DNA of 64,000 nucleotides from contig JAUSIQ010000031.1 in assembly GCA_030647955.1 (NCBI GenBank), positions 2,920 through 66,919 on the forward strand, read 5' to 3'. This DNA is from a bacterium (GTDB lineage: Bacteria > Patescibacteriota > Minisyncoccia > 2-02-FULL-40-12 > IGHO2-12-FULL-4). This document shows, piece by piece, positions 1,326 to 51,049 of this stretch. Numbering within the stretch: position 1 is the stretch's first letter; each line of letters begins with the position of its first letter. A program made the translations under genes and the position numbers. Below the pieces are notes generated by a model, which worked only from the letters and a program-made list of their open reading frames with translations, was not told where the DNA came from and made no database searches.

Positions 1326-2774
1326 ATGAAGATCCCTAAAGAAATTGAATTAATTCTCGAAGAACTTCAAGAGCATAGCTTTGAAGCTTTTATCGTGGGT
1401 GGATGCGTCCGCGATCTTTTGATGGGCAAAGCCCCGAAAGATTGGGACGTAACCACCAATGCTCGCCCCGAAGAGATCCAAAAAATATTTCCCGACAGCT
1501 TCTATGCAAACGAATTCGGCACTGTGGGTATCAAAACCGATCACGCAGAGAAAAGTCTTCAAGTGGTCGAGACCACCACTTATCGTACCGAATCCAGCTA
1601 CTCTGATCAGCGCCATCCTGATTCCATCAAATTCGCTACTACCTTAGAAGAAGACCTAAAGCGTCGCGACTTCACTATCAACGCCTTGGCCATGGACAAA
1701 GAGGGCAAGGTCATTGATTTGTTTTCCGGACAAGAAGACTTGAAAAAAAAGATTATTCGCGCCGTGGGCGATCCCCAGGAAAGATTTTCCGAGGACGCTC
1801 TGCGCATGATTCGCGCCATCCGCTTTGCCACGGTATTGGAATTTGAGATCGAAGCGGCCACTCTCGAAGCTATCAAAAAAAACGCAGGATTGATGGAAAA
1901 AATTTCCCAAGAGCGAATTCGTGACGAACTTGTTAAAACCATCTCCGCCGACCAGGCCAGTAGGGGAGTAGAGTTGTTACGCGAGACCAACCTTATGCCC
2001 TTCGTTATTCCCGAGCTTTTAGAAGGCGTTGATGTCGGACAGAACCTCCACCATATTTATACCGTATGGGAGCACAACGTGCGTGCTTTGCAGTATGCCG
2101 CCGACAAGCAATATTCCGTCGCCGTGCGCCTGGCTTCGTTATTGCACGATGTTGGCAAGCCCCGTTCCAAGAGAGGAGAGGGTAAGTACTCTACTTTTTA
2201 CGGACACGATATGATCGGCGCCAAAATGAGCATCAAGATTTTAGCGCGCCTGAAATTTTCCAAAGATCTCTCTGAAAAAATTACCAAACTGGTGCGTTGG
2301 CATCTCTTCTATTATAACGTGGGGGAAGTGACCGAAAGTTCGGTGCGCCGCTTGGTAGCCAATATCGGCAAAGAGAACGTTGAAGACCTCGTTAAAGTAC
2401 GGGAGGCGGACCGGATCGGCTCCGGCACACCCAAAGCCCATCCCTACAAACTTCGCCACCTCCAGTTTATGATCGACAAAGTAGCCCGCGACCCTATCTC
2501 TCCCAAAATGCTAAAGCTGAACGGTAATGAGCTCATGACCCTCTTGGGCTTGCCACCCGGCCCAAAAATTGGGATGATTTTAGCTGCCCTAATGGAAGAG
2601 GTTTTGGACGATCCCGCCAAGAATACTAGAGAGTTCCTGGAAAATCGTAGTCGAGAGTTATCAACCTTATCGGAAAAGGAGTTAACGGATTTGGCCCAAA
2701 AGGGTAAAAGTAAGTTGGCGGAGGAAGAAGAAAAAGCCATTAAGAAAATCAAACAGAAACATTACGTTGAGTAA
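1326..2774 (+). CDS. cca: CCA-adding tRNA nucleotidyltransferase with C-terminal HD domain
   Basis: N-terminal GGCVRDLLMG...DWDVTT pol-beta nucleotidyltransferase head; HD motif LLHDVGKP; 482 aa. It sits beside tRNAs that lack an encoded CCA. Confidence 0.85.
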   Translation: MKIPKEIELILEELQEHSFEAFIVGGCVRDLLMGKAPKDWDVTTNARPEEIQKIFPDSFYANEFGTVGIKTDHAEKSLQVVETTTYRTESSYSDQRHPDSIKFATTLEEDLKRRDFTINALAMDKEGKVIDLFSGQEDLKKKIIRAVGDPQERFSEDALRMIRAIRFATVLEFEIEAATLEAIKKNAGLMEKISQERIRDELVKTISADQASRGVELLRETNLMPFVIPELLEGVDVGQNLHHIYTVWEHNVRALQYAADKQYSVAVRLASLLHDVGKPRSKRGEGKYSTFYGHDMIGAKMSIKILARLKFSKDLSEKITKLVRWHLFYYNVGEVTESSVRRLVANIGKENVEDLVKVREADRIGSGTPKAHPYKLRHLQFMIDKVARDPISPKMLKLNGNELMTLLGLPPGPKIGMILAALMEEVLDDPAKNTREFLENRSRELSTLSEKELTDLAQKGKSKLAEEEEKAIKKIKQKHYVE

Positions 2775-2832
2775 CTCGCCTCTGCGAGCTGCCGGGCTTC
2801 GCCCGTCGTAGCTTCGTCACTGCGAGCGAAGA

Positions 2833-2904
2833 CGGGGTATAGTGTAGCGGCAACACGGGTCGTTCGGGTCGATCAGACGCTGGGTTCGACTCCCAGTACC
2901 CCGA
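2833..2904 (+). tRNA. tRNA-Pro (anticodon CGG), no encoded CCA
   Basis: Acceptor CGGGGUA/UACCCCG, anticodon stem GGUCG/CGAUC, loop UUCGGGU, T-arm CUGGG-UUCGACU-CCCAG, discriminator A. Confidence 0.8.
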
Positions 2905-3210
2905 CTGAATGAAATGAAGGAGGAGTACAGCAAGCCAACAATTTGGCTTGCGTTGGGAGGAGAAGGGCAAGTCTATGTTTTTTTCAAAAACAGACTTGCC
3001 CCGGCCCGCAGGGGACCCCAGTACCCCGACATATATAAAAGAAAGGACCTTCATAGGCCCTTTCTTTTATATTAGTGAAGCTGGGAGTCGAAGGGTATCG
3101 AGAAAAAGTAAACAGTTTTACTTTTTTGAGAACCCCGGCCCTGGGGGAGAAAATTTCGATGTGCAGCAGGCACCAGAAATTTTCGGAGGAAGGGGACTCC
3201 CAGTACCTCC
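2905..3210 (+). repeat. tRNA-Pro-linked insert with two reiterated copies of the tRNA 3' end and a conserved ~125-nt structured module (3085-3210)
   Basis: CCCAGTACCCCGAC (tRNA 2892-2905) recurs at 3017-3030. GACTCCCAGTACC (2888-2900) recurs at 3195-3207. The module 3085-3210 is about 85% identical to 5643-5772 and contains hairpins GAAAAAGTAAAC/GTTTTACTTTTTT and GAAAATTTCGAT/ACCAGAAATTTTC. Confidence 0.6.
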
Positions 3211-3345
3211 CCAAATTCCCTATATTCCATACCCCATTTTTTGTTCATAAGACGCGTTTATAATTTAATTAAAAAAGCCACAGCCTAACCCAAGAAAAAA
3301 GGTAATTAGTACAGAAAGCCCTCATATTGACTTTTTGCTCAAAAA

Positions 3346-4623
3346 GTGCTAGAATATAAGGATCCGTTAATGCCCAGATACCCCTCTATGAAACGACTAC
3401 TTGCATTTGTTTTAATGCTCCTAATTATATCCCTTTCCGGGGCTGTTTCGGTTAGTGCGGCTCCTGCGCCGGCCAGCGTTGACATAGAGAATTATGGCTT
3501 TCGCAGCCAAGGAGTACTCTTTCAGAACTTGGATGTTCGCAATGGAAACCAGGTGGAAGTTGTGGTGAGCCTAAGAAATAACTCTTCTAATACTGCTCAG
3601 GGGGTGCGTTTAAATGTTTATCTTCATTACTCCATGCGAGAAGTCCAGGGAAGCGTTAAAATAAACGGCCTACTGGCCAGTGGAAGTGCTACTACCGGAA
3701 TTATAGTAGGAAGCATGGCGGCAGGGGAGAAGAAGGAAATCTCCTTTAAAGCTACCCCGGGCGGAAGCATGGAAGGCGACACTGAAATTCAAGCCCAGGT
3801 ATCCGGCAGTAATATCGGAACAATAACAAAGTTCGCTTTTATTAATGTTCTGCCTCGAACCACTCTTCCTACTCCTACACCTATTACCACTCCAGCCCCT
3901 ACTCCGAATCCCACACCGGTCTATACTCCTACGCCAACACCAGTTTTCACACGTACACCAGCTCCCACTCCGAAGATAACCTCTAAAACTCCGACACCTA
4001 CTCCTATAACCCAAACTCCCACTCCGACCCCAACCGGCACTGTTTATATTTACGGAGACAGAGTGAGCATGAGCGTCATCCAAGTAGGACGCAATATTAC
4101 CGAAGAACAACAGGTGCCTACCAAAGAAATTACCGCTCGCCCCGGAGATGAGTTGGAGTTTTCTATTCAACTGACCTCTAATAGCGATCAGGTGATCAAA
4201 AATATCGTCATCACCGACCGTTTACCGGATCAAGTAGATTACATCTACAACACTACCCGCATGAACGATCAAACTATTAATGATGACGTGGTCCGTGGCG
4301 GCTTTATTTATGGAGACTTGCAGCCGCGCGAGATTAAAAGCATCACATATCGTGTCCGCATTTTGCCTGATCCCCAGTTTGAGAAAGGGGAAGTAGAACT
4401 GCAGAACATCGTAGAGATTATTTCCGACAATGCCACTACCGCTAAAGACACGACCAAGATCTTCGTTAAGGAAAAGCAGTCTAGATTATTGAGCGGATTG
4501 CTATCGCCTTCCGGTTTGGGACTTTATCTTGTCATCTTTATGGCCGCACTAGTGACCCTCTTCCTAACCTTCTGGGTACAGGAACGAAAAAAGACCCGAA
4601 CCCTTCTTGCCACTCAGAGCTAA
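3346..4623 (+). CDS. secreted cell-surface protein with PT-rich linker and C-terminal membrane anchor
   Basis: Signal peptide MKRLLAFVLMLLIISLSGAVSVSAAPAP (likely start at 3388); TPTPT repeat linker; C-terminal LSPSG + hydrophobic stretch + ERKKTR tail. Confidence 0.65.
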   Translation: MLEYKDPLMPRYPSMKRLLAFVLMLLIISLSGAVSVSAAPAPASVDIENYGFRSQGVLFQNLDVRNGNQVEVVVSLRNNSSNTAQGVRLNVYLHYSMREVQGSVKINGLLASGSATTGIIVGSMAAGEKKEISFKATPGGSMEGDTEIQAQVSGSNIGTITKFAFINVLPRTTLPTPTPITTPAPTPNPTPVYTPTPTPVFTRTPAPTPKITSKTPTPTPITQTPTPTPTGTVYIYGDRVSMSVIQVGRNITEEQQVPTKEITARPGDELEFSIQLTSNSDQVIKNIVITDRLPDQVDYIYNTTRMNDQTINDDVVRGGFIYGDLQPREIKSITYRVRILPDPQFEKGEVELQNIVEIISDNATTAKDTTKIFVKEKQSRLLSGLLSPSGLGLYLVIFMAALVTLFLTFWVQERKKTRTLLATQS

Positions 4624-4626
4624 TTT

Positions 4627-4648
4627 AAAAACCCCGTACGGGGTTTTT
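4627..4648 (+). terminator. rho-independent terminator
   Basis: AAAAACCCCGTACGGGGTTTTT hairpin immediately after the stop codon at 4623. Confidence 0.7.
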
Positions 4649-4659
4649 AAATTATAATT

Positions 4660-4733
4660 GATCCCGTTAGAGAAAAGCCGCCCCAAGGCGGCTGAAGCCA
4701 CTCGCCTGCGGCGAGAGCGTTCTCTAACGGGAT
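4660..4733. repeat. hairpin element with 13-bp terminal inverted repeats GATCCCGTTAGAG / CTCTAACGGGAT (family copy 1)
   Basis: Termini at 4660-4672 and 4722-4733. The GC-rich core holds nested hairpins GCCGCC-CCAA-GGCGGC and CTCGCC-TGC-GGCGAG. The same termini recur at 40433-40506. Confidence 0.6.
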
Positions 4734-4792
4734 TGACACTCCTACTCAATAAAGTACGATCAGCTTATCGATCTTTCACAACAGGAGTGGAT

Positions 4793-5458
4793 GTGCCCAG
4801 ACGACATCTAAAAAATTGTCAGTTAGGAATTTTTGATTGGAACGGAACGTTAGTCGATGATCTGCCTTTAGTACTGGAAAGCGTTGCGCGCATCTTTAAA
4901 CATTTTAAGACACCAATTCCCCACGATCTCGCCACAAAATATCGTGAGCAGATTACCGCCAATTTCTCTAAATTCTATCATCATCACGGTATACCATCAC
5001 ATATTACCGCTGAAGAAATGAACGCCCAAAGAGTAAAGTTTTTTAAGAAGTATCGCAGTTGCACTCGTCTTCGAGCTCACGCAAAACAAGTTCTCACATT
5101 CTGCAAAGCTCTCGGCTCAGTGCAAATTGGTATTGTTAGTGCAGAAGTTAATGAATTATTAAGAAAGGGCCTGCGTGATCTCGAGATAGAGGAGTACTTT
5201 GACTTTGTCTGGGCCGACACCCGAGATAAAACTGCTGCCCTGGAAGATGCCTGCGATGCGTTTGAAGTTCATCCCTCCAGAACATTTTATGTCGACGACA
5301 CCTGCGAAGGTGTTCGAGCCTCGGCCGCCACCGGTGTTATTCCAGTAGCACTCGTGACTCCCACCAGCTACGCCCCCGAAGCACTCCTAAGAGAGGAGGC
5401 TCGAGCCAAGAAGGCGATTATTATCACCGATCTTGCTCAGATTAAGCAGTTAATTTAA
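4793..5458 (+). CDS. HAD-superfamily hydrolase (phosphatase-like)
   Basis: Motif I IFDWNGTLVDD near the N-terminus. The 4658 ATG in the ORF track lies inside the upstream hairpin element, so the real start is probably GTG 4793, preceded by AGGAG at 4782-4786. Confidence 0.55.
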   Translation: MPRRHLKNCQLGIFDWNGTLVDDLPLVLESVARIFKHFKTPIPHDLATKYREQITANFSKFYHHHGIPSHITAEEMNAQRVKFFKKYRSCTRLRAHAKQVLTFCKALGSVQIGIVSAEVNELLRKGLRDLEIEEYFDFVWADTRDKTAALEDACDAFEVHPSRTFYVDDTCEGVRASAATGVIPVALVTPTSYAPEALLREEARAKKAIIITDLAQIKQLI

Positions 5459-5476
5459 AACCCGTTCGGGTTTTTT
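5457..5476 (+). terminator. rho-independent terminator
   Basis: AAAACCCGTTCGGGTTTTTT. Confidence 0.65.
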
Positions 5477-5510
5477 CTTTTTTAGGGGCTGTGCTAGGAT
5501 GTACCCAAAC

Positions 5511-5581
5511 GGGCTCGTAGTTCAGTGGTAAAACGCCGCATTCGCATTGCGGAGGCGCGGGTTCGATTCCCGCCGAGTCCA
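5511..5581 (+). tRNA. tRNA-Ala (anticodon CGC), no encoded CCA
   Basis: Acceptor GGGCUCG/CGAGUCC with G3:U70, anticodon stem CCGCA/UGCGG, loop UUCGCAU, T-arm GCGGG-UUCGAUU-CCCGC. Confidence 0.8.
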
Positions 5582-5772
5582 CAAATGAAACTTCGGGATC
5601 ACTTTCTGAAGTGGTCTAGAGGTTTCATGCTGTACCCGCCGAGAATCGAAGGGTATTGAGAAAAAGTGAACAGTTTCACTTTTTCGAGAACCCGGGCTCT
5701 GGAGGAGAAAATTTCGATATGCCAAAGGTATCAGAAATTTTCGGAGGAAGAGGATTCCCGCCGAGTCCACCA
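5582..5772 (+). repeat. tRNA-Ala-linked insert: partial copy of tRNA 3' end (5634-5642), conserved ~125-nt module (5643-5752), then a 20-nt copy of the tRNA 3' end with CCA (5753-5772)
   Basis: GATTCCCGCCGAGTCCA of tRNA 5565-5581 is repeated as GATTCCCGCCGAGTCCACCA at 5753-5772. The module is homologous to 3085-3210 and carries hairpins GAAAAAGTGAAC/GTTTCACTTTTTC and GAAAATTTCGAT/ATCAGAAATTTTC. Confidence 0.6.
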
Positions 5773-5830
5773 ATACAAATGATTCGAGCTTGGTACAATA
5801 AACACACTTAATATTATTAATTCCGCCATT

Positions 5831-7843
5831 TTGTATCCCAATAAATTTAAAATTTTAGGAGCAGGCGTAATAGTAGCCCCTCTCCTCGTCCTTATACTAG
5901 GAAGCCACGCGGACTTTGCCTTAACAGCTCCAGCTTCAGGCTTCCCTGGCGGCTTTGTAGAAAAATCAAATTCCATCCAAACCCGACCCATTTTAAAAAC
6001 AACTGCTCAACTAAGCTTTGTGCCTAGTGGTCGCGGTGGCTTTACCTTTCCTGCTCCTTACAATACCCGAGGTTCCCGCATTACGATACCTGCCGACGGT
6101 ACAGTTTATCCAGTAGGGTATTCTTACTGGCGGGTTATGAATAACCACGTTGGTTCCAACACCATGTACATAGCCATAGGTACCACAAGTGGCCCGATCC
6201 TCTTTAGTTACGACAAAACAACTGAGGCCGTTCAAAGTCTTGGTGCCATGACCTTCGCAGGGAACACAGAAGGGATGTACTTTAGCGCGACACAACCTAA
6301 TAGATTATATTCCTTTACTGGCACCCGTCTCCTGGCCTACGATGTCGTATCAAGGACAACTCAAACGGTTTTTGATATCGCCAGTAACACTGCTCTTTAT
6401 GGAAGTAATCGTTATCTCTGGCAAGTCCATTCCAGCAACAATGATGATGTCCATTCCGCTACCGTGAGAGACGGTGCAACCTACAATATGCTCGGTTGTA
6501 TGGCCTACAAGGTCAGCACCAATCAATGGTTCTGGTATCCACGAATAGGGGATTTTGATGAATGCCAAATTGACAAAGGTGGTCGTTGGCTAGTCATTAA
6601 AGAAAATGTCGATGCGCTATACGACGTAGATAATCGCTTCATTGACCTGACCACAGGAATTGAAAAACGCATCCTAGATCAAAACGGGGCTGTTGGTCAC
6701 TCTGACAATGGTTTTAATTACACTATTGGCGCTGATAACTGGGATAATGATTCATTTAGCACCAAAGTGTGGCAATTTGCAACTAATCCTCTTACCGGAC
6801 TGGAAGTATACAAAGCTGCAAATTGGTCTGCTGGTGGCCCCCAACACATCAGTCATACCAACGCTACATCTGCTGACTCAAACATCCAATATGCCTGCGG
6901 GAGCGGTGCTGATTCAGGCAGTGATCCTCATGGCAATGAACTGCTGTGCTTCAAGTTGGACGGTTCTTTAGATACCCTCATCATTGCTCCAATCATGACT
7001 AACCTGGCTGCAGCTGGAGGGGGAGACTCCTATGGTAAACAGCCTAAAGCCAATCTTGATGTCACCGGACAATACGCTCTTTGGACAGCAAATTTAGATA
7101 GTGGTCGATTAGATGTTATCCTGGCTAAGATTCCGTCCCAGGTGCTGATGGGATTCGGACCTACCCCAACCCCTACCCTCACACTAACTCCTGTTCTCGG
7201 TGTCACTCCTACCCCGACGCCAGTACCGAGCACACCTCCTACACCCGTACCCACCCCTATTCCGAACGTCAACCTCCCTCCTGTTCAGCCGAAGCTGGAT
7301 AATATCCCTTCCTCTACGGATTATATCCCCCCATCGACCGATAACCGTTCCACTAAGGTAGTGAGGAGGCCCCCTGCAAGGTTAACTGATTTTAATTTGA
7401 AGGAAGGGGACGTGGTTTCAGCAGTTGGGTCAGCTGATCCCGATATTTATATTGTGAATGAGCATGGGTATAGGCGGCTATTCCTTAATCCAGTTATCTT
7501 TAGCTTCTATGGTCATCTGGGAGGATTCCACGCAGTTAAATCCATTAGTCCAAATATCCGTGATGCGTTCCCGGCTACGCAGTTTTTCAGAAATTGTGAA
7601 ACGAACGATCCTAAAATCTATGCTCTTGAGGTAACCGGAGAAGACACGGGCATTCTCCATCATATAAATATGACTGGGGATCAGGCGGCCGCAGAAGATG
7701 CTGATTTTTTCTCACAGGTATTCTGTATTAACACTCGAGAGTTTAGCTGGTATGCTTTGGGCGATGCTTATAGCGCCCTATCCCAAGTACCGACGTATGA
7801 GAGAACTCAGGCCATTTCCCAACCAAGTCAATCCACTCCTTAG
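5831..7843 (+). CDS. large secreted protein with PT-rich linker, hypothetical
   Basis: 670 aa; N-terminal signal/TM MYPNKFKILGAGVIVAPLLVLILGSHA; PTPTPTLTLTPV...TPTPTPVPSTPPTPVPTPIP linker; no catalytic motif recognised. Confidence 0.6.
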   Translation: MYPNKFKILGAGVIVAPLLVLILGSHADFALTAPASGFPGGFVEKSNSIQTRPILKTTAQLSFVPSGRGGFTFPAPYNTRGSRITIPADGTVYPVGYSYWRVMNNHVGSNTMYIAIGTTSGPILFSYDKTTEAVQSLGAMTFAGNTEGMYFSATQPNRLYSFTGTRLLAYDVVSRTTQTVFDIASNTALYGSNRYLWQVHSSNNDDVHSATVRDGATYNMLGCMAYKVSTNQWFWYPRIGDFDECQIDKGGRWLVIKENVDALYDVDNRFIDLTTGIEKRILDQNGAVGHSDNGFNYTIGADNWDNDSFSTKVWQFATNPLTGLEVYKAANWSAGGPQHISHTNATSADSNIQYACGSGADSGSDPHGNELLCFKLDGSLDTLIIAPIMTNLAAAGGGDSYGKQPKANLDVTGQYALWTANLDSGRLDVILAKIPSQVLMGFGPTPTPTLTLTPVLGVTPTPTPVPSTPPTPVPTPIPNVNLPPVQPKLDNIPSSTDYIPPSTDNRSTKVVRRPPARLTDFNLKEGDVVSAVGSADPDIYIVNEHGYRRLFLNPVIFSFYGHLGGFHAVKSISPNIRDAFPATQFFRNCETNDPKIYALEVTGEDTGILHHINMTGDQAAAEDADFFSQVFCINTREFSWYALGDAYSALSQVPTYERTQAISQPSQSTP

Positions 7844-43776: not shown

Positions 43777-44016
43777 ATGTATAATATGGGCAGCTCTTTT
43801 TTTGGAGGCCCTATGAGTAACAAGCTTATTGTCAAAGCCATAGATGACCTGACTTTAGATGAGATGGTAGCCATGCTTAGAGAGATTAAGATGACTTCGG
43901 AGGAAGAAGAGGCGCAGAGGATTAGTTTTGCTTACGGTAATGTAAAATTGTCCAATCCTGCTATAACTTTGGAAATGGTTATAGAAGCGGCCAGAAAACA
44001 CCCTCGAAAGAAGTAG
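43777..44016 (+). CDS. small hypothetical protein
   Basis: 79-aa ORF, no motif. Confidence 0.3.
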   Translation: MYNMGSSFFGGPMSNKLIVKAIDDLTLDEMVAMLREIKMTSEEEEAQRISFAYGNVKLSNPAITLEMVIEAARKHPRKK

Positions 44017-44037
44017 ACCCGCAAGGGTCTTTTGTTT

Positions 44038-44226
44038 TGTCCGCCCACTAGGAGTTGGTCTCGGCTCTCGTTCGCCCGTCGGCGAACTCGGCCTAACCAC
44101 CAGCTCGCCATGTCATCTACTGACGACATATGGCTCCGCTGTTCAACTCCTAACGCCAGCCAAGTAGTTGGCTGGCTGTGGTCTGTTAAACATAAAGAGA
44201 CCCTTCGGCCTCTTTATGTTTACATG
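44038..44226 (-). repeat. tRNA-Lys-linked insert ending in a reiterated tRNA 3' end
   Basis: CCGCCCACTAGGAGTTG at 44040-44056 repeats the tRNA-Lys 3' end (44228-44245). An inverted partial copy TTCAACTCCTAACG lies at ~44146-44160. GC-rich hairpins. Motif CTCGGCCTAACCACCAGC is shared with the tRNA-Ile insert. Confidence 0.55.
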
Positions 44227-44299
44227 TCCGCCCACTAGGAGTTGAACCTAGAACCTTATCCTTAAGAGGGATCTGCTCTGCCAATTGAGCTATGGGCGG
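44227..44299 (-). tRNA. tRNA-Lys (anticodon CUU), no encoded CCA
   Basis: Acceptor CCGCCCA/UGGGCGG, anticodon loop CUCUUAA, T-arm CUAGG-UUCAACU-CCUAG. Confidence 0.75.
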
Positions 44300-44311
44300 G
44301 GCTAATTGTTT

Positions 44312-44386
44312 TGGTGCCCTCGGAGGGAATCGAACCCCCATTGCTGGTTCCGAAGACCAGTACTTTATCCGTTAAGCTACGAGGGC
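44312..44386 (-). tRNA. tRNA-Arg (anticodon UCG), CCA encoded
   Basis: Acceptor GCCCUCG/CGAGGGC, anticodon stem CUGGU/ACCAG, loop CUUCGGA, T-loop UUCGAUU, ACCA 3' end. Confidence 0.8.
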
Positions 44387-47678: not shown

Positions 47679-47723
47679 CTTCTGCGGAGAACGGGAGTCC
47701 TTCTCTTTCTATATTTTTCTACC

Positions 47724-47746: not shown

Positions 47747-47877
47747 GGGTTATTCGGAGCGGATAACGGGAGTCGAAACCGTCTCTGGTCCTTTGCAAGG
47801 ACCCATAATACCGATATACGATATCCGCGAATTATTCTTGATTATATGACAAAACGAGAATAAATCAAGAATAATAT

Positions 47878-50803: not shown

Positions 50804-50853
50804 ATCCAAGACCAAAAGCAAACTATTGCTTTTGGTGGGCGCGCTTGGATTCG
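50804..50853. repeat. 50-bp direct repeat carrying a copy of the tRNA-Ile 3' end plus downstream hairpin (second copy 50944-50993)
   Basis: ATCCAAGACCAAAAGCAAACTATTGCTTTTGGTGGGCGCGCTTGGATTCG is identical at both positions. It includes the 21 nt of tRNA-Ile from T-loop to CCA and the hairpin CCAAAAGCAA/TTGCTTTTGG. The ~90-bp segment between copies is GC-rich. Confidence 0.65.
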
Positions 50854-50972
50854 GTTTCGCCTCTCGCCTCGCCAGGCGCTCGGCTCGGGCTAACCACCGC
50901 TTCGTGATTCCGCCTGCTGGCGAAATATCACTCCGGCGTTCTCATCCAAGACCAAAAGCAAACTATTGCTTT

Positions 50973-51049
50973 TGGTGGGCGCGCTTGGATTCGAACCAAG
51001 GACCGCCGAGGTATAAGCTCGGTGCTCTAACCGACTGAGCTACGCGCCC
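50973..51049 (-). tRNA. tRNA-Ile (anticodon UAU), CCA encoded
   Basis: Acceptor GGGCGCG/CGCGCCC, anticodon stem CCGAG/CUCGG, loop CUUAUAC, T-arm CUUGG-UUCGAAU-CCAAG, ACCA end. Confidence 0.7.

Follow-up and report, generated by a model that had tools for sequence, protein, structure and literature searches.

The 3′ ends of tRNA and transfer-messenger RNA (tmRNA) genes are reportedly used as integration sites by prophages and genomic islands, with a sublocation in the T-loop, and integrase-less cis-mobilizable elements (CIMEs) are also known. The spacers and trailers of tRNA transcripts can hold functional RNAs, such as the E. coli 3′ETS-leuZ sponge and the box C/D guide in the intron of archaeal pre-tRNA-Trp, and the bacterial Y RNA YrlA, which is linked to rsr, is a generic mimic of the T- and D-arm fold. 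In riboswitches and attenuators, the closing helix P1 competes with an alternative pairing. This report concerns an insert at the 3′ end of tRNA-Ala(CGC) in a 64-kb stretch of a Patescibacteriota contig (JAUSIQ010000031.1), the whole of which is called the window below. Region 5583–5774 of the window is tentatively interpreted, with a little less than even confidence, as a cassette of an apparently undescribed structured-RNA family that resides in the tRNA/tmRNA transcription units of Patescibacteria and may act in cis as a pairing switch. A search of the accessible literature returned no description of such cassettes; the nearest system described there was the group I introns that Patescibacteria tRNAs carry in their anticodon loops (PMC13011429).

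The cassettes are similar to the sites of prophages and genomic islands, and to CIMEs, in that a 3′ segment is repeated from the T-loop onwards, that tRNA and tmRNA genes are both used, and that relatives have empty and occupied sites. A preliminary description of this DNA had taken the order of tRNA 3′ end, insert and repeated 3′ end at tRNA-Ala for the classical signature of site-specific integration into a tRNA gene. The order was borne out, with the repeat starting in the T-loop. The interpretation was not, since the insert is only about 110–190 nucleotides (nt) long and is a conserved folded RNA rather than cargo, it carries an antisense copy of the T-arm, which would not be expected of an attachment (att) site, the inserts and their surroundings are free of recombinases, and no autonomous relative sharing att arms was found, nor any match in the phage collection or the viral contigs.

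Copies of their own 3′ ends were sought downstream of all 12 tRNAs in the window. They were found for tRNA-Pro (two, in tandem cassettes), tRNA-Ala, tRNA-Lys(CTT), where the copy is 19 nt long, and tRNA-Ile(TAT), where the direct repeat is 50 nt long and includes the terminator (50993–50944 and 50853–50804); at tRNA-Cys, a short remnant of a copy is left. A common core, termed type 2, is found in the Lys and Ile inserts. It is distinct from the type-1 core of the Pro and Ala inserts, and all of these inserts follow the same overall plan, namely a three-way junction closed by a helix between an upstream strand and the first part of the tRNA-end copy. For the Pro, Lys and Ile inserts, this plan was predicted as the minimum-free-energy fold; for the Ala insert, it was taken from the sequence together with alignment to a covariance model (R1, built from 65 type-2 sequences). 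On the tRNA strand, the order of the parts is an optional trailer hairpin, an optional segment A (antisense of tRNA 66–75), hairpin P0, which is often present, segment B (antisense of 57–65), a junction (antisense of 53–56, reading GAAC in type 2 and GAA in type 1), hairpins P2 and P3, and a tail F′ that repeats the tRNA in the sense direction, starting at position 56/57 and continuing past the discriminator. Taken together, the junction and the 5′ strand of the closing helix are antisense to tRNA 53–65.

A family of such cassettes exists, and its members follow a tRNA or tmRNA of matching sequence. Metagenome and viral contigs were searched with the type-2 core pattern GGTGNNTAGSCCGAG...GAGAGSCGA, which gave at least 120 metagenome loci. 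Among the matches listed, a same-strand tRNA ended less than 450 nt upstream in 92 of the 103 that had enough upstream sequence, and 86 had a matching tail; the tails were usually 17–22 nt long and ran from C56/R57 of the T-loop to the discriminator. The type-2 loci cover at least 16 amino-acid specificities. Most of the remaining loci follow tmRNA genes or intron-containing tRNAs that ARAGORN missed; at L032, L078 and L139, the tag frame (...ANFTPNYAYA) and the T-arm/acceptor end of a tmRNA are visible upstream of the core, and the tail copies the tmRNA 3′ end. In a set of 204 distinct tRNAs, which was taken from loci picked for the type-2 core and is therefore enriched for such copies, an own 3′-end copy of at least 11 nt within 450 nt was found downstream of 83 and upstream of 4. 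About 17 of the tRNAs with downstream copies have cores other than type 2, among them a GAAGGG type that resembles type 1 and a reduced "mini" form (L028, L096) and a CUGUAAG type (L114, L144). In a subset of the type-2 cassettes (L027, L036, L110, L130, L137), an extra small hairpin (e.g., GCGGUAAUCCGC) lies between P3 and the 3′ strand of the T-stem, where it replaces the 3′ nucleotides of the T-loop.

Model R1 gave 109 matches in 100 loci, with bona fide members scoring 50–119 bits. The best matches in the window were the Lys (112 bits) and Ile (98.7 bits) cassettes, followed in third and fourth place by the type-1 modules at Pro (23.7 bits, E about 0.001) and Ala (17.4 bits, E about 0.04). 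Because R1 aligns over its full length to both type-1 modules (3080–3205 and 5638–5763), type 1 is treated as a divergent branch of the type-2 architecture, a homology that is suggested by the alignment and falls short of proof. The type-1 modules have the architecture of a cassette, with an antisense T-arm, GAA, P2, P3 and a sense tail after the cognate tRNA on the same strand. In terms of the genes that follow, 19 tRNA genes on the same strand, belonging to 17 of 106 modules, start within about 170 nt after the tail (nine of them within 50 nt) and none does so on the opposite strand. The antisense strand may start only 7–14 nt after the tRNA. Judging from these arrangements, co-transcription of the cassettes with tRNAs is plausible.

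The fold was tested as a 39-pair structure on an alignment of the 65 type-2 sequences, in comparison with slid partners and with shuffles. In this structure 85.4% of the cells were paired, compared to 34–43% with slid partners; changes on both sides were seen at 31 pairs, in 472 cells compared to about 150 in the shuffles, and the covariation score was 0.474 compared to 0.07–0.10. G-U pairs are frequent on the tRNA strand, where the opposite strand would have A-C mismatches, and for this reason the fold is assigned to the tRNA strand. The junction and the internal loops hold invariant nucleotides (GAAC, GGAG, CGAG, GGTG, TAG, CCGAG, GAGAG, CGA). The pattern of sequence changes shows that the cassette is conserved as a predicted folded RNA read on the tRNA strand. 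In the Lys cassette (44155–44190, minus strand) and at many other loci, the loop of P0 (consensus AACUGCUU; CUACU in Lys) is complementary to the apical loop of P2 (CAGCAG; CAGUAG in Lys), which suggests a possible kissing-loop contact; a subfamily with an AAGCUU loop does not fit this pairing.

Comparison of the antisense strand with both of its potential partners shows that, at the level of sequence, it tracks the actual tRNA more closely than the tail does. Its antisense nature is borne out by T-loops that are not palindromic, such as TTCAACT of tRNA-Lys, for which the cassette reads AGTTGAAC. The junction tetramer corresponds to tRNA positions 53–56 as GTTC/GAAC at 64 loci, GTCC/GGAC at four and GTGC/GCAC at three; five apparent exceptions were ascribed, on inspection, to errors in parsing the anchor or the T-arm. 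Position 55 of tRNA is near-universally U (as pseudouridine). The tail lacks positions 53–55, and still the antisense strand covaries with position 55 in 7/7 variant tRNAs. These are C55 tRNAs in L085, L094, L113 and L119 and G55 tRNAs in L042, L095 and L117, each with the complementary base in the junction. Where tRNA and tail differ within 57–65, the antisense strand fits the tRNA better at 19 loci, about five of which are tails misaligned through an extra mini-hairpin, and the tail better at two. An antisense acceptor segment (66–75, at most one mismatch) precedes P0 at 26 of 79 loci compared to about 5% in controls, and it often prolongs the trailer hairpin, so that a long, perfect palindrome with the acceptor end of the tRNA results. 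The antisense strand is thus complementary both to tRNA 53–65 and to the tail, two pairings that would be mutually exclusive.

At the Ala locus itself, tRNA-Ala was found to lack an encoded CCA, as previously described and as ARAGORN and Rfam agree, and it carries CAA in its place. The last 18 nt of the tRNA together with position 74 (GATTCCCGCCGAGTCCAC) occur again 170 nt further 3′. The 20-nt duplicate with CCA that had been described (GATTCCCGCCGAGTCCACCA, 5753–5772) is indeed present, and the copy reads ...CCACCA, but the repeat runs on as GATTCCCGCCGAGTCCAC[A/C]AAT with 22/23 nt identical (5565–5586 and 5753–5774 by repeat search), so that the presence of CCA in the duplicate only comes down to a single substitution. 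The third partial copy, CCCGCCGAG, also exists, one base away from the position first given for it (5634–5642). The hairpin ATGAAAC...GTTTCAT, with which the insert had been said to begin, is present and is predicted to fold, and its arms hold the acceptor end in degenerate form, as CGGGATCAC in the sense and GTGGTCTAG in the antisense direction. The Ala junction GAA is the antisense of T54 T55 C56, and the 3′ strand of the closing helix is 5753–5762.

The claim that this is the second copy of a tRNA-linked module likewise held. The 122-nt type-1 module occurs after tRNA-Pro(CGG) at 3080–3201 and after tRNA-Ala at 5638–5759 with 85–86% identity, and these are its only copies within the window. 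A third copy is known at a tRNA-Gly (L058), and compensatory changes in P2 and P3 are seen across the three, including a change from G-C to A-U in P2 between the Pro and Ala copies. The purine-rich internal loops of P3, GGRGGAG (GGAGGAG in Ala) and CGGAGGAAG, are invariant in 3/3 copies. A Shine-Dalgarno-like GGAGG is present in both of these loops in both window copies (3143–3149 and 3183–3191; 5701–5707 and 5741–5749) and is equally invariant in 3/3 copies. Small open reading frames (ORFs) cover the window modules (3075–3263 and 5656–5811) in frames that differ relative to the module; a protein-coding small ORF was rejected since no frame is kept between the copies and the differences are compensatory in the helices.

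The direct repeat is where cassettes are gained, lost and repeated in tandem. Among relatives, tRNA-Pro(CGG) and tRNA-Ala(CGC) are neighbors that directly follow the gene for the CCA-adding enzyme, with 8 nt between them in L021 and 91 nt in L011. Empty sites exist, since L010 and L021 carry no cassette at either tRNA. The comparison of orthologous tRNA-Ala loci that the preliminary description had proposed revealed an arrangement that varies, with empty sites and with extra copies elsewhere, and of its suggestion of a mobile or recombinogenic unit, the recombinogenic behavior was upheld. The type-1 unit at a third tRNA, tRNA-Gly(TCC) of L058 (nhmmer E = 2e-11), is missing from L133, which is about 96% identical to L058 over the following 200 nt and has the body of the tRNA in place of the module. 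The point of divergence falls exactly between TTC and GATTCCC, in the T-loop between positions 56 and 57, and L133 retains a fragment of the type-1 3′ end and a third tail further downstream. Tandem units occur at the Pro locus of the window and in L060 and L061. In contigs with cassettes at different tRNAs, the cores are nearly identical and the antisense strands and tails differ (Arg and Lys in L048; L123; L114).

The direct repeats often extend into the trailer, as at tRNA-Ile of the window (50 nt) and in L029, L094, L060 and L104. CCA is encoded in neither gene nor tail in 44 cases, in both in 10, in the tail only in three and in the gene only in two; since the two usually agree, the tails copy the gene rather than the mature tRNA. 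An origin of the tail as a retro-copy of mature tRNA, to which the CCA had pointed, was accordingly rejected, given the 44 tails that lack CCA like their genes and the repeats that continue into trailers. The cassette after tRNA-Ala in L011 has an unrelated AT-rich core and again ends in a copy of the acceptor end. Positions 11587–11860 of L011 are nested, with a sequence like the 5′ half of tRNA-Ala (GGGCCTATAGCACAGTGGTAATGCGCCGCATT) upstream of an intact tRNA-Ala whose leader and trailer are complementary (CCCCGTTAGAAATGC / GCATTTCTAACGGGG); the partner of the downstream tail TAGGTCCACCA is not the inner tRNA but the outer 5′ half, with G3:U70 in the pairing.

We read the cassette not as a conventional integration scar but, tentatively, as a recombination-prone structured RNA of a new, tRNA-anchored class, and we infer its function from sequence. 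If the cassette RNA works in cis on the transcripts of tRNA operons, then the antisense strand could pair with the 3′ half of the tRNA to form a long duplex, through which the tRNA would be unfolded or marked; alternatively, it could pair with the tail to form a closed three-way junction. Whatever binds the conserved junction would decide between these pairings, and hence would set the amount of that tRNA that matures. A by-product of the direct repeats would be that the DNA of the cassette recombines easily. Such a switch would be similar to a riboswitch or attenuator in having a multi-helix junction closed by a helix whose 5′ strand has two alternative partners, with the GAAC belonging to the alternative pairing. 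In contrast to these, the partner would be the upstream tRNA instead of a downstream terminator or ribosome-binding site, and the cassette is not in Rfam. The cassettes would also be similar to 3′ETS-leuZ as a functional RNA co-transcribed with tRNAs, which for the cassettes is plausible only, and to the archaeal box C/D cis guide in being antisense to their own tRNA in the same precursor. Sequence, fold and partners differ from those of both systems, and neither of the two is known to have a sense copy of a tRNA end.

Several observations weigh against a pairing switch. At many loci a terminator-like hairpin and a U-run lie between the tRNA and the antisense strand, so that only read-through transcripts would carry the cassette, unless this hairpin forms the tip of a long hairpin between tRNA and antisense strand. 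Invasion of a tRNA that has already folded is difficult. Of all the helices, the closing one has the lowest share of paired cells (77%), and in the Ala cassette, where the tail is perfect, the strand GCCGAGAATC is an imperfect antisense of tRNA 57–66 that makes 8/10 pairs with the tail. Dispensable, polymorphic cassettes with tandem arrays and remnants look more like a selfish element than a regulator, and the match between the copies could be maintained, with no function at the RNA level, by gene conversion from the tRNA into nearby inverted and direct repeats.

The main rival explanation is a non-autonomous, retargetable mobile element, which we consider unlikely but not negligible. In such an element, the antisense strand of the cassette RNA (or of single-stranded DNA) would serve as a guide of 13–22 nt that spans T-loop position 56/57 of tRNA and tmRNA genes, insertion would be carried out by a small self-splicing or reverse-splicing ribozyme or by an unlinked enzyme, and the tail would be the displaced 3′ end of the target. 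The guide runs across the junction without a break and covaries with tRNA position 55, which the tail lacks, just as the internal guide sequence of group I introns (P1/P10) aligns both exons by being complementary to both sides of one tRNA position. The breakpoint between presence and absence is exactly 56/57, type 1 is found at Pro, Ala and Gly, tandem arrays and remnants occur, and tRNA and tmRNA 3′ ends are said to be a classic target class of integrating elements. Nearly identical cores with differing guides and tails at different tRNAs of one genome (L048, L123, L114) also fit, although gene conversion between cassettes may explain them as well. According to PMC13011429, Patescibacteria, the host phylum of the cassettes, are rich in tRNA introns without homing endonucleases, and tRNA group I introns are reported to be common there. 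The cassettes are unlike group I introns in their T-loop instead of anticodon-loop site, in a core of about 90 nt without P3–P8, in the lack of an Intron_gpI match and in the intact upstream tRNA. The proximal tRNA is always intact, which makes splicing unnecessary; the tails copy the gene and not the mature tRNA (44 without CCA); no Rfam ribozyme or intron was matched; no enzyme is linked in cis; and group II introns, and hence their reverse transcriptases, were not detected in Patescibacteria according to PMC13011429. It is more doubtful still that the ribozyme-like core of about 90 nt and the guide of 13–22 nt make up a new guide-bearing mobile RNA element that inserts at 56/57 and is retargeted by a change of guide. 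Less probable again is an RNA that mimics tRNA in trans, in which the closed cassette would form an acceptor/T-stem minihelix of cognate sequence, P0 standing in for the D and anticodon arms and P2/P3 for the T-loop. This minihelix would act on proteins that recognize it (e.g., synthetases, EF-Tu or toxins directed at the acceptor end), either as a decoy or as a carrier. About a third of the cassettes carry the antisense acceptor strand and can form a complete acceptor-like helix of 7–9 bp stacked on the T-stem mimic, tail identity usually reaches through the discriminator, and the flanking tRNA genes would allow RNase Z and RNase P to release the cassette as a separate RNA. The other two thirds lack a 5′ acceptor strand, and the helix usually pairs positions 73–74 too, which leaves no free NCCA end. 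Furthermore, the antisense of 53–56 would be superfluous for a mimic and yet covaries, and divergence comes about more easily in the tails than in the antisense strand. As non-coding RNAs that imitate part of a tRNA, YrlA and other tRNA mimics are similar to the cassettes; in contrast to YrlA, the cassettes copy the exact acceptor and T-stem strands of the neighboring tRNA and replace the T-loop.

Two further explanations were weighed. The cassettes could be neutral by-products, i.e., functionless forward-reverse-forward copies left by fold-back or slippage duplications around the T-arm and terminator palindromes; this is very improbable. The forward-reverse-forward layout is present, long perfect palindromes take in the acceptor end and the trailer, and the repeats run into neutral trailer sequence, but neither a core of about 90 nt with invariant loops and hundreds of compensatory changes over distant loci nor a P0 hairpin placed exactly at the acceptor/T-stem junction is explained in this way. 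We give hardly any credence to an attL/attR-type duplication, in which a larger element inserted by an integrase has since decayed to about 190 nt, and regard it as largely refuted. Direct repeats of tRNA 3′ ends that begin in the T-loop, empty sites in relatives and the use of tmRNA genes would be expected of it. It is insufficient because it leaves unexplained the fold, the antisense copy, the constant small size and the absence of recombinases: more than 100 loci share a similar size and a conserved sequence and fold with covariation, the antisense T-arm copy lies about 90 nt from the tail, where an att core does not predict it, and integrases are neither present in or beside any insert nor enriched near the approximately 110 loci.

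No recombinase, transposase or reverse transcriptase is encoded in or next to the inserts, and the neighbors of the window cassettes include genes for a DUF11 surface protein and a haloacid dehalogenase (HAD)-family hydrolase and an ORF without a Pfam match. Among 1022 ORFs within 4 kb of about 110 cassettes, no protein family was enriched and no recombinase cluster was found. The top neighbor cluster, at eight loci, is the CCA-adding enzyme, which is probably near the cassettes through synteny with tRNA clusters. Neither module type was matched in the viral contigs or in the phage collection. The strict type-1 pattern had no match in viral or metagenome contigs; it is too strict to match even the known L058 copy, which reads GAGAAACCC for GAGAACCC and starts at a contig edge. 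An exact 19-mer of the type-1 module gave only nine chance matches in the genome contigs. With Rfam 15, the whole window returned only tRNAs at the gathering score, and regions 2700–5900 and 43950–44320 gave no relevant match up to E = 10. Known ribozyme cores, the hammerhead among them, were rejected by inspection and Rfam. A group I intron was rejected since Intron_gpI was not matched and the upstream tRNA is intact in all inspected loci, including tmRNAs and intron-containing tRNAs, and an intron that replaces the 3′ exon was rejected since the proximal tRNA 3′ end is always intact. A miniature inverted-repeat transposable element or insertion sequence was rejected since the inverted repeat is specific to the tRNA and not to the element, the length of the repeat at the tRNA end varies from 9 to about 58 nt instead of being fixed, and no transposase was found.

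If the cassettes act as RNA on their own tRNAs, they would constitute a previously unseen layer of per-tRNA control or processing in the candidate phyla radiation (CPR), whose bacteria have very small genomes. If mobile, they would target tRNA genes in a new way, by means of a programmable guide of their own and without a linked protein. In either case, they are a concrete RNA family with a covariance-supported fold and more than 100 examples that marks tRNA and tmRNA 3′ ends, and they explain many "partial tRNA" repeats in CPR genomes. The features of the window loci are listed in Table 1.

Table 1. Positions of the tRNA genes, cassettes and cassette parts in the window.
Feature	Position	Strand	Basis
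tRNA-Pro(CGG), host gene	2833–2904	+	ARAGORN, Rfam
First Pro cassette, "mini" GAAGGG type	2930–3030	+	Repeat and fold; homologous mini type at tRNA-Arg of L096
Parts of the mini Pro cassette	P0 2930–2951; antisense T-stem 2953–2959; GAGAA; P2; CCC-GCA-GGG; tail CCCAGTACCCCGAC 3017–3030		
Terminator-like hairpin separating the two Pro cassettes	3033–3072	+	Inverted-repeat search, predicted fold
Second Pro cassette, type 1	3080–3207	+	R1 23.7 bits, E about 0.001
tRNA-Ala(CGC), host gene	5511–5581/2	+	ARAGORN; Rfam tRNA 69.1 bits
Parts of tRNA-Ala	T-stem 5557–5561; T-loop 5562–5568; T-stem 3′ strand 5569–5573; acceptor 3′ strand 5574–5580; A73 5581	+	
F, proximal copy of the Ala repeat (tRNA 57–73 + CAAAT)	5565–5586	+	Repeat search
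Spacer hairpin ATGAAAC...GTTTCAT, at the position of the trailer/P0 hairpin of other cassettes	5585–5628	+	Predicted fold
CCCGCCGAG, partial sense copy of tRNA-Ala 61–69, overlapping the antisense strand	5635–5643	+	Sequence
R, closing-helix 5′ strand GCCGAGAATC + junction GAA	5638–5650	+	Fold, R1 alignment, direct reading
P2 hairpin, type-1 core (GGGTATTGAG...GAGAACCC)	5651–5694	+	Predicted fold
P3 hairpin, type-1 core	5697–5752	+	Predicted fold, alignment
F′, Ala tail (sense copy of tRNA 57–73, then CCAAT)	5753–5774	+	Sequence, repeat search
Type-2 cassette after tRNA-Lys(CTT) (44226–44299)	44039–44225	-	R1 112 bits
Parts of the Lys cassette	Trailer hairpin; P0; core 44046–44154; tail CAACTCCTAGTGGGCGGAC 44057–44039	-	
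Type-2 cassette after tRNA-Ile(TAT) (50973–51049)	50804–50972; core 50842–50951	-	R1 98.7 bits
Remnant tail GACTCCCGTT(C)TCCGC after tRNA-Cys (47756–47828) and its terminator; no core	47684–47699	-	

At the Pro locus, the first insert is a reduced, "mini" version of type 1. In the second cassette, GCTGGGAGTC followed by GAA is the perfect antisense of tRNA 54–65 and is followed by P2 and P3; its tail, GACTCCCAGTACC at 3195–3207, decays after 13 nt. The gap between tRNA-Pro and tRNA-Ala in the window is 2.6 kb (2906–5510) and holds the two cassettes, the DUF11 surface-protein gene (3346–4623) and the HAD hydrolase gene (4658–5458). The gene for the CCA-adding enzyme (1326–2774) sits between tRNA-Arg(CCT) and tRNA-Pro(CGG), in region 1240–2905, and assigns the window to Patescibacteria, close to Candidatus Yanofskybacteria and Paceibacterota. 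Encoded CCA is mixed among the 12 window tRNAs, being present in Ala-GGC, Arg-TCG, Phe and Ile-TAT, and the other eight have C-A or similar after the discriminator. Short direct repeats of CCTAC/ACTCC units, rich in proline/threonine codons, at 3872–4027 and 7156–7286 lie inside the two large ORFs that flank the Ala locus and are likely low-complexity linkers of surface proteins.

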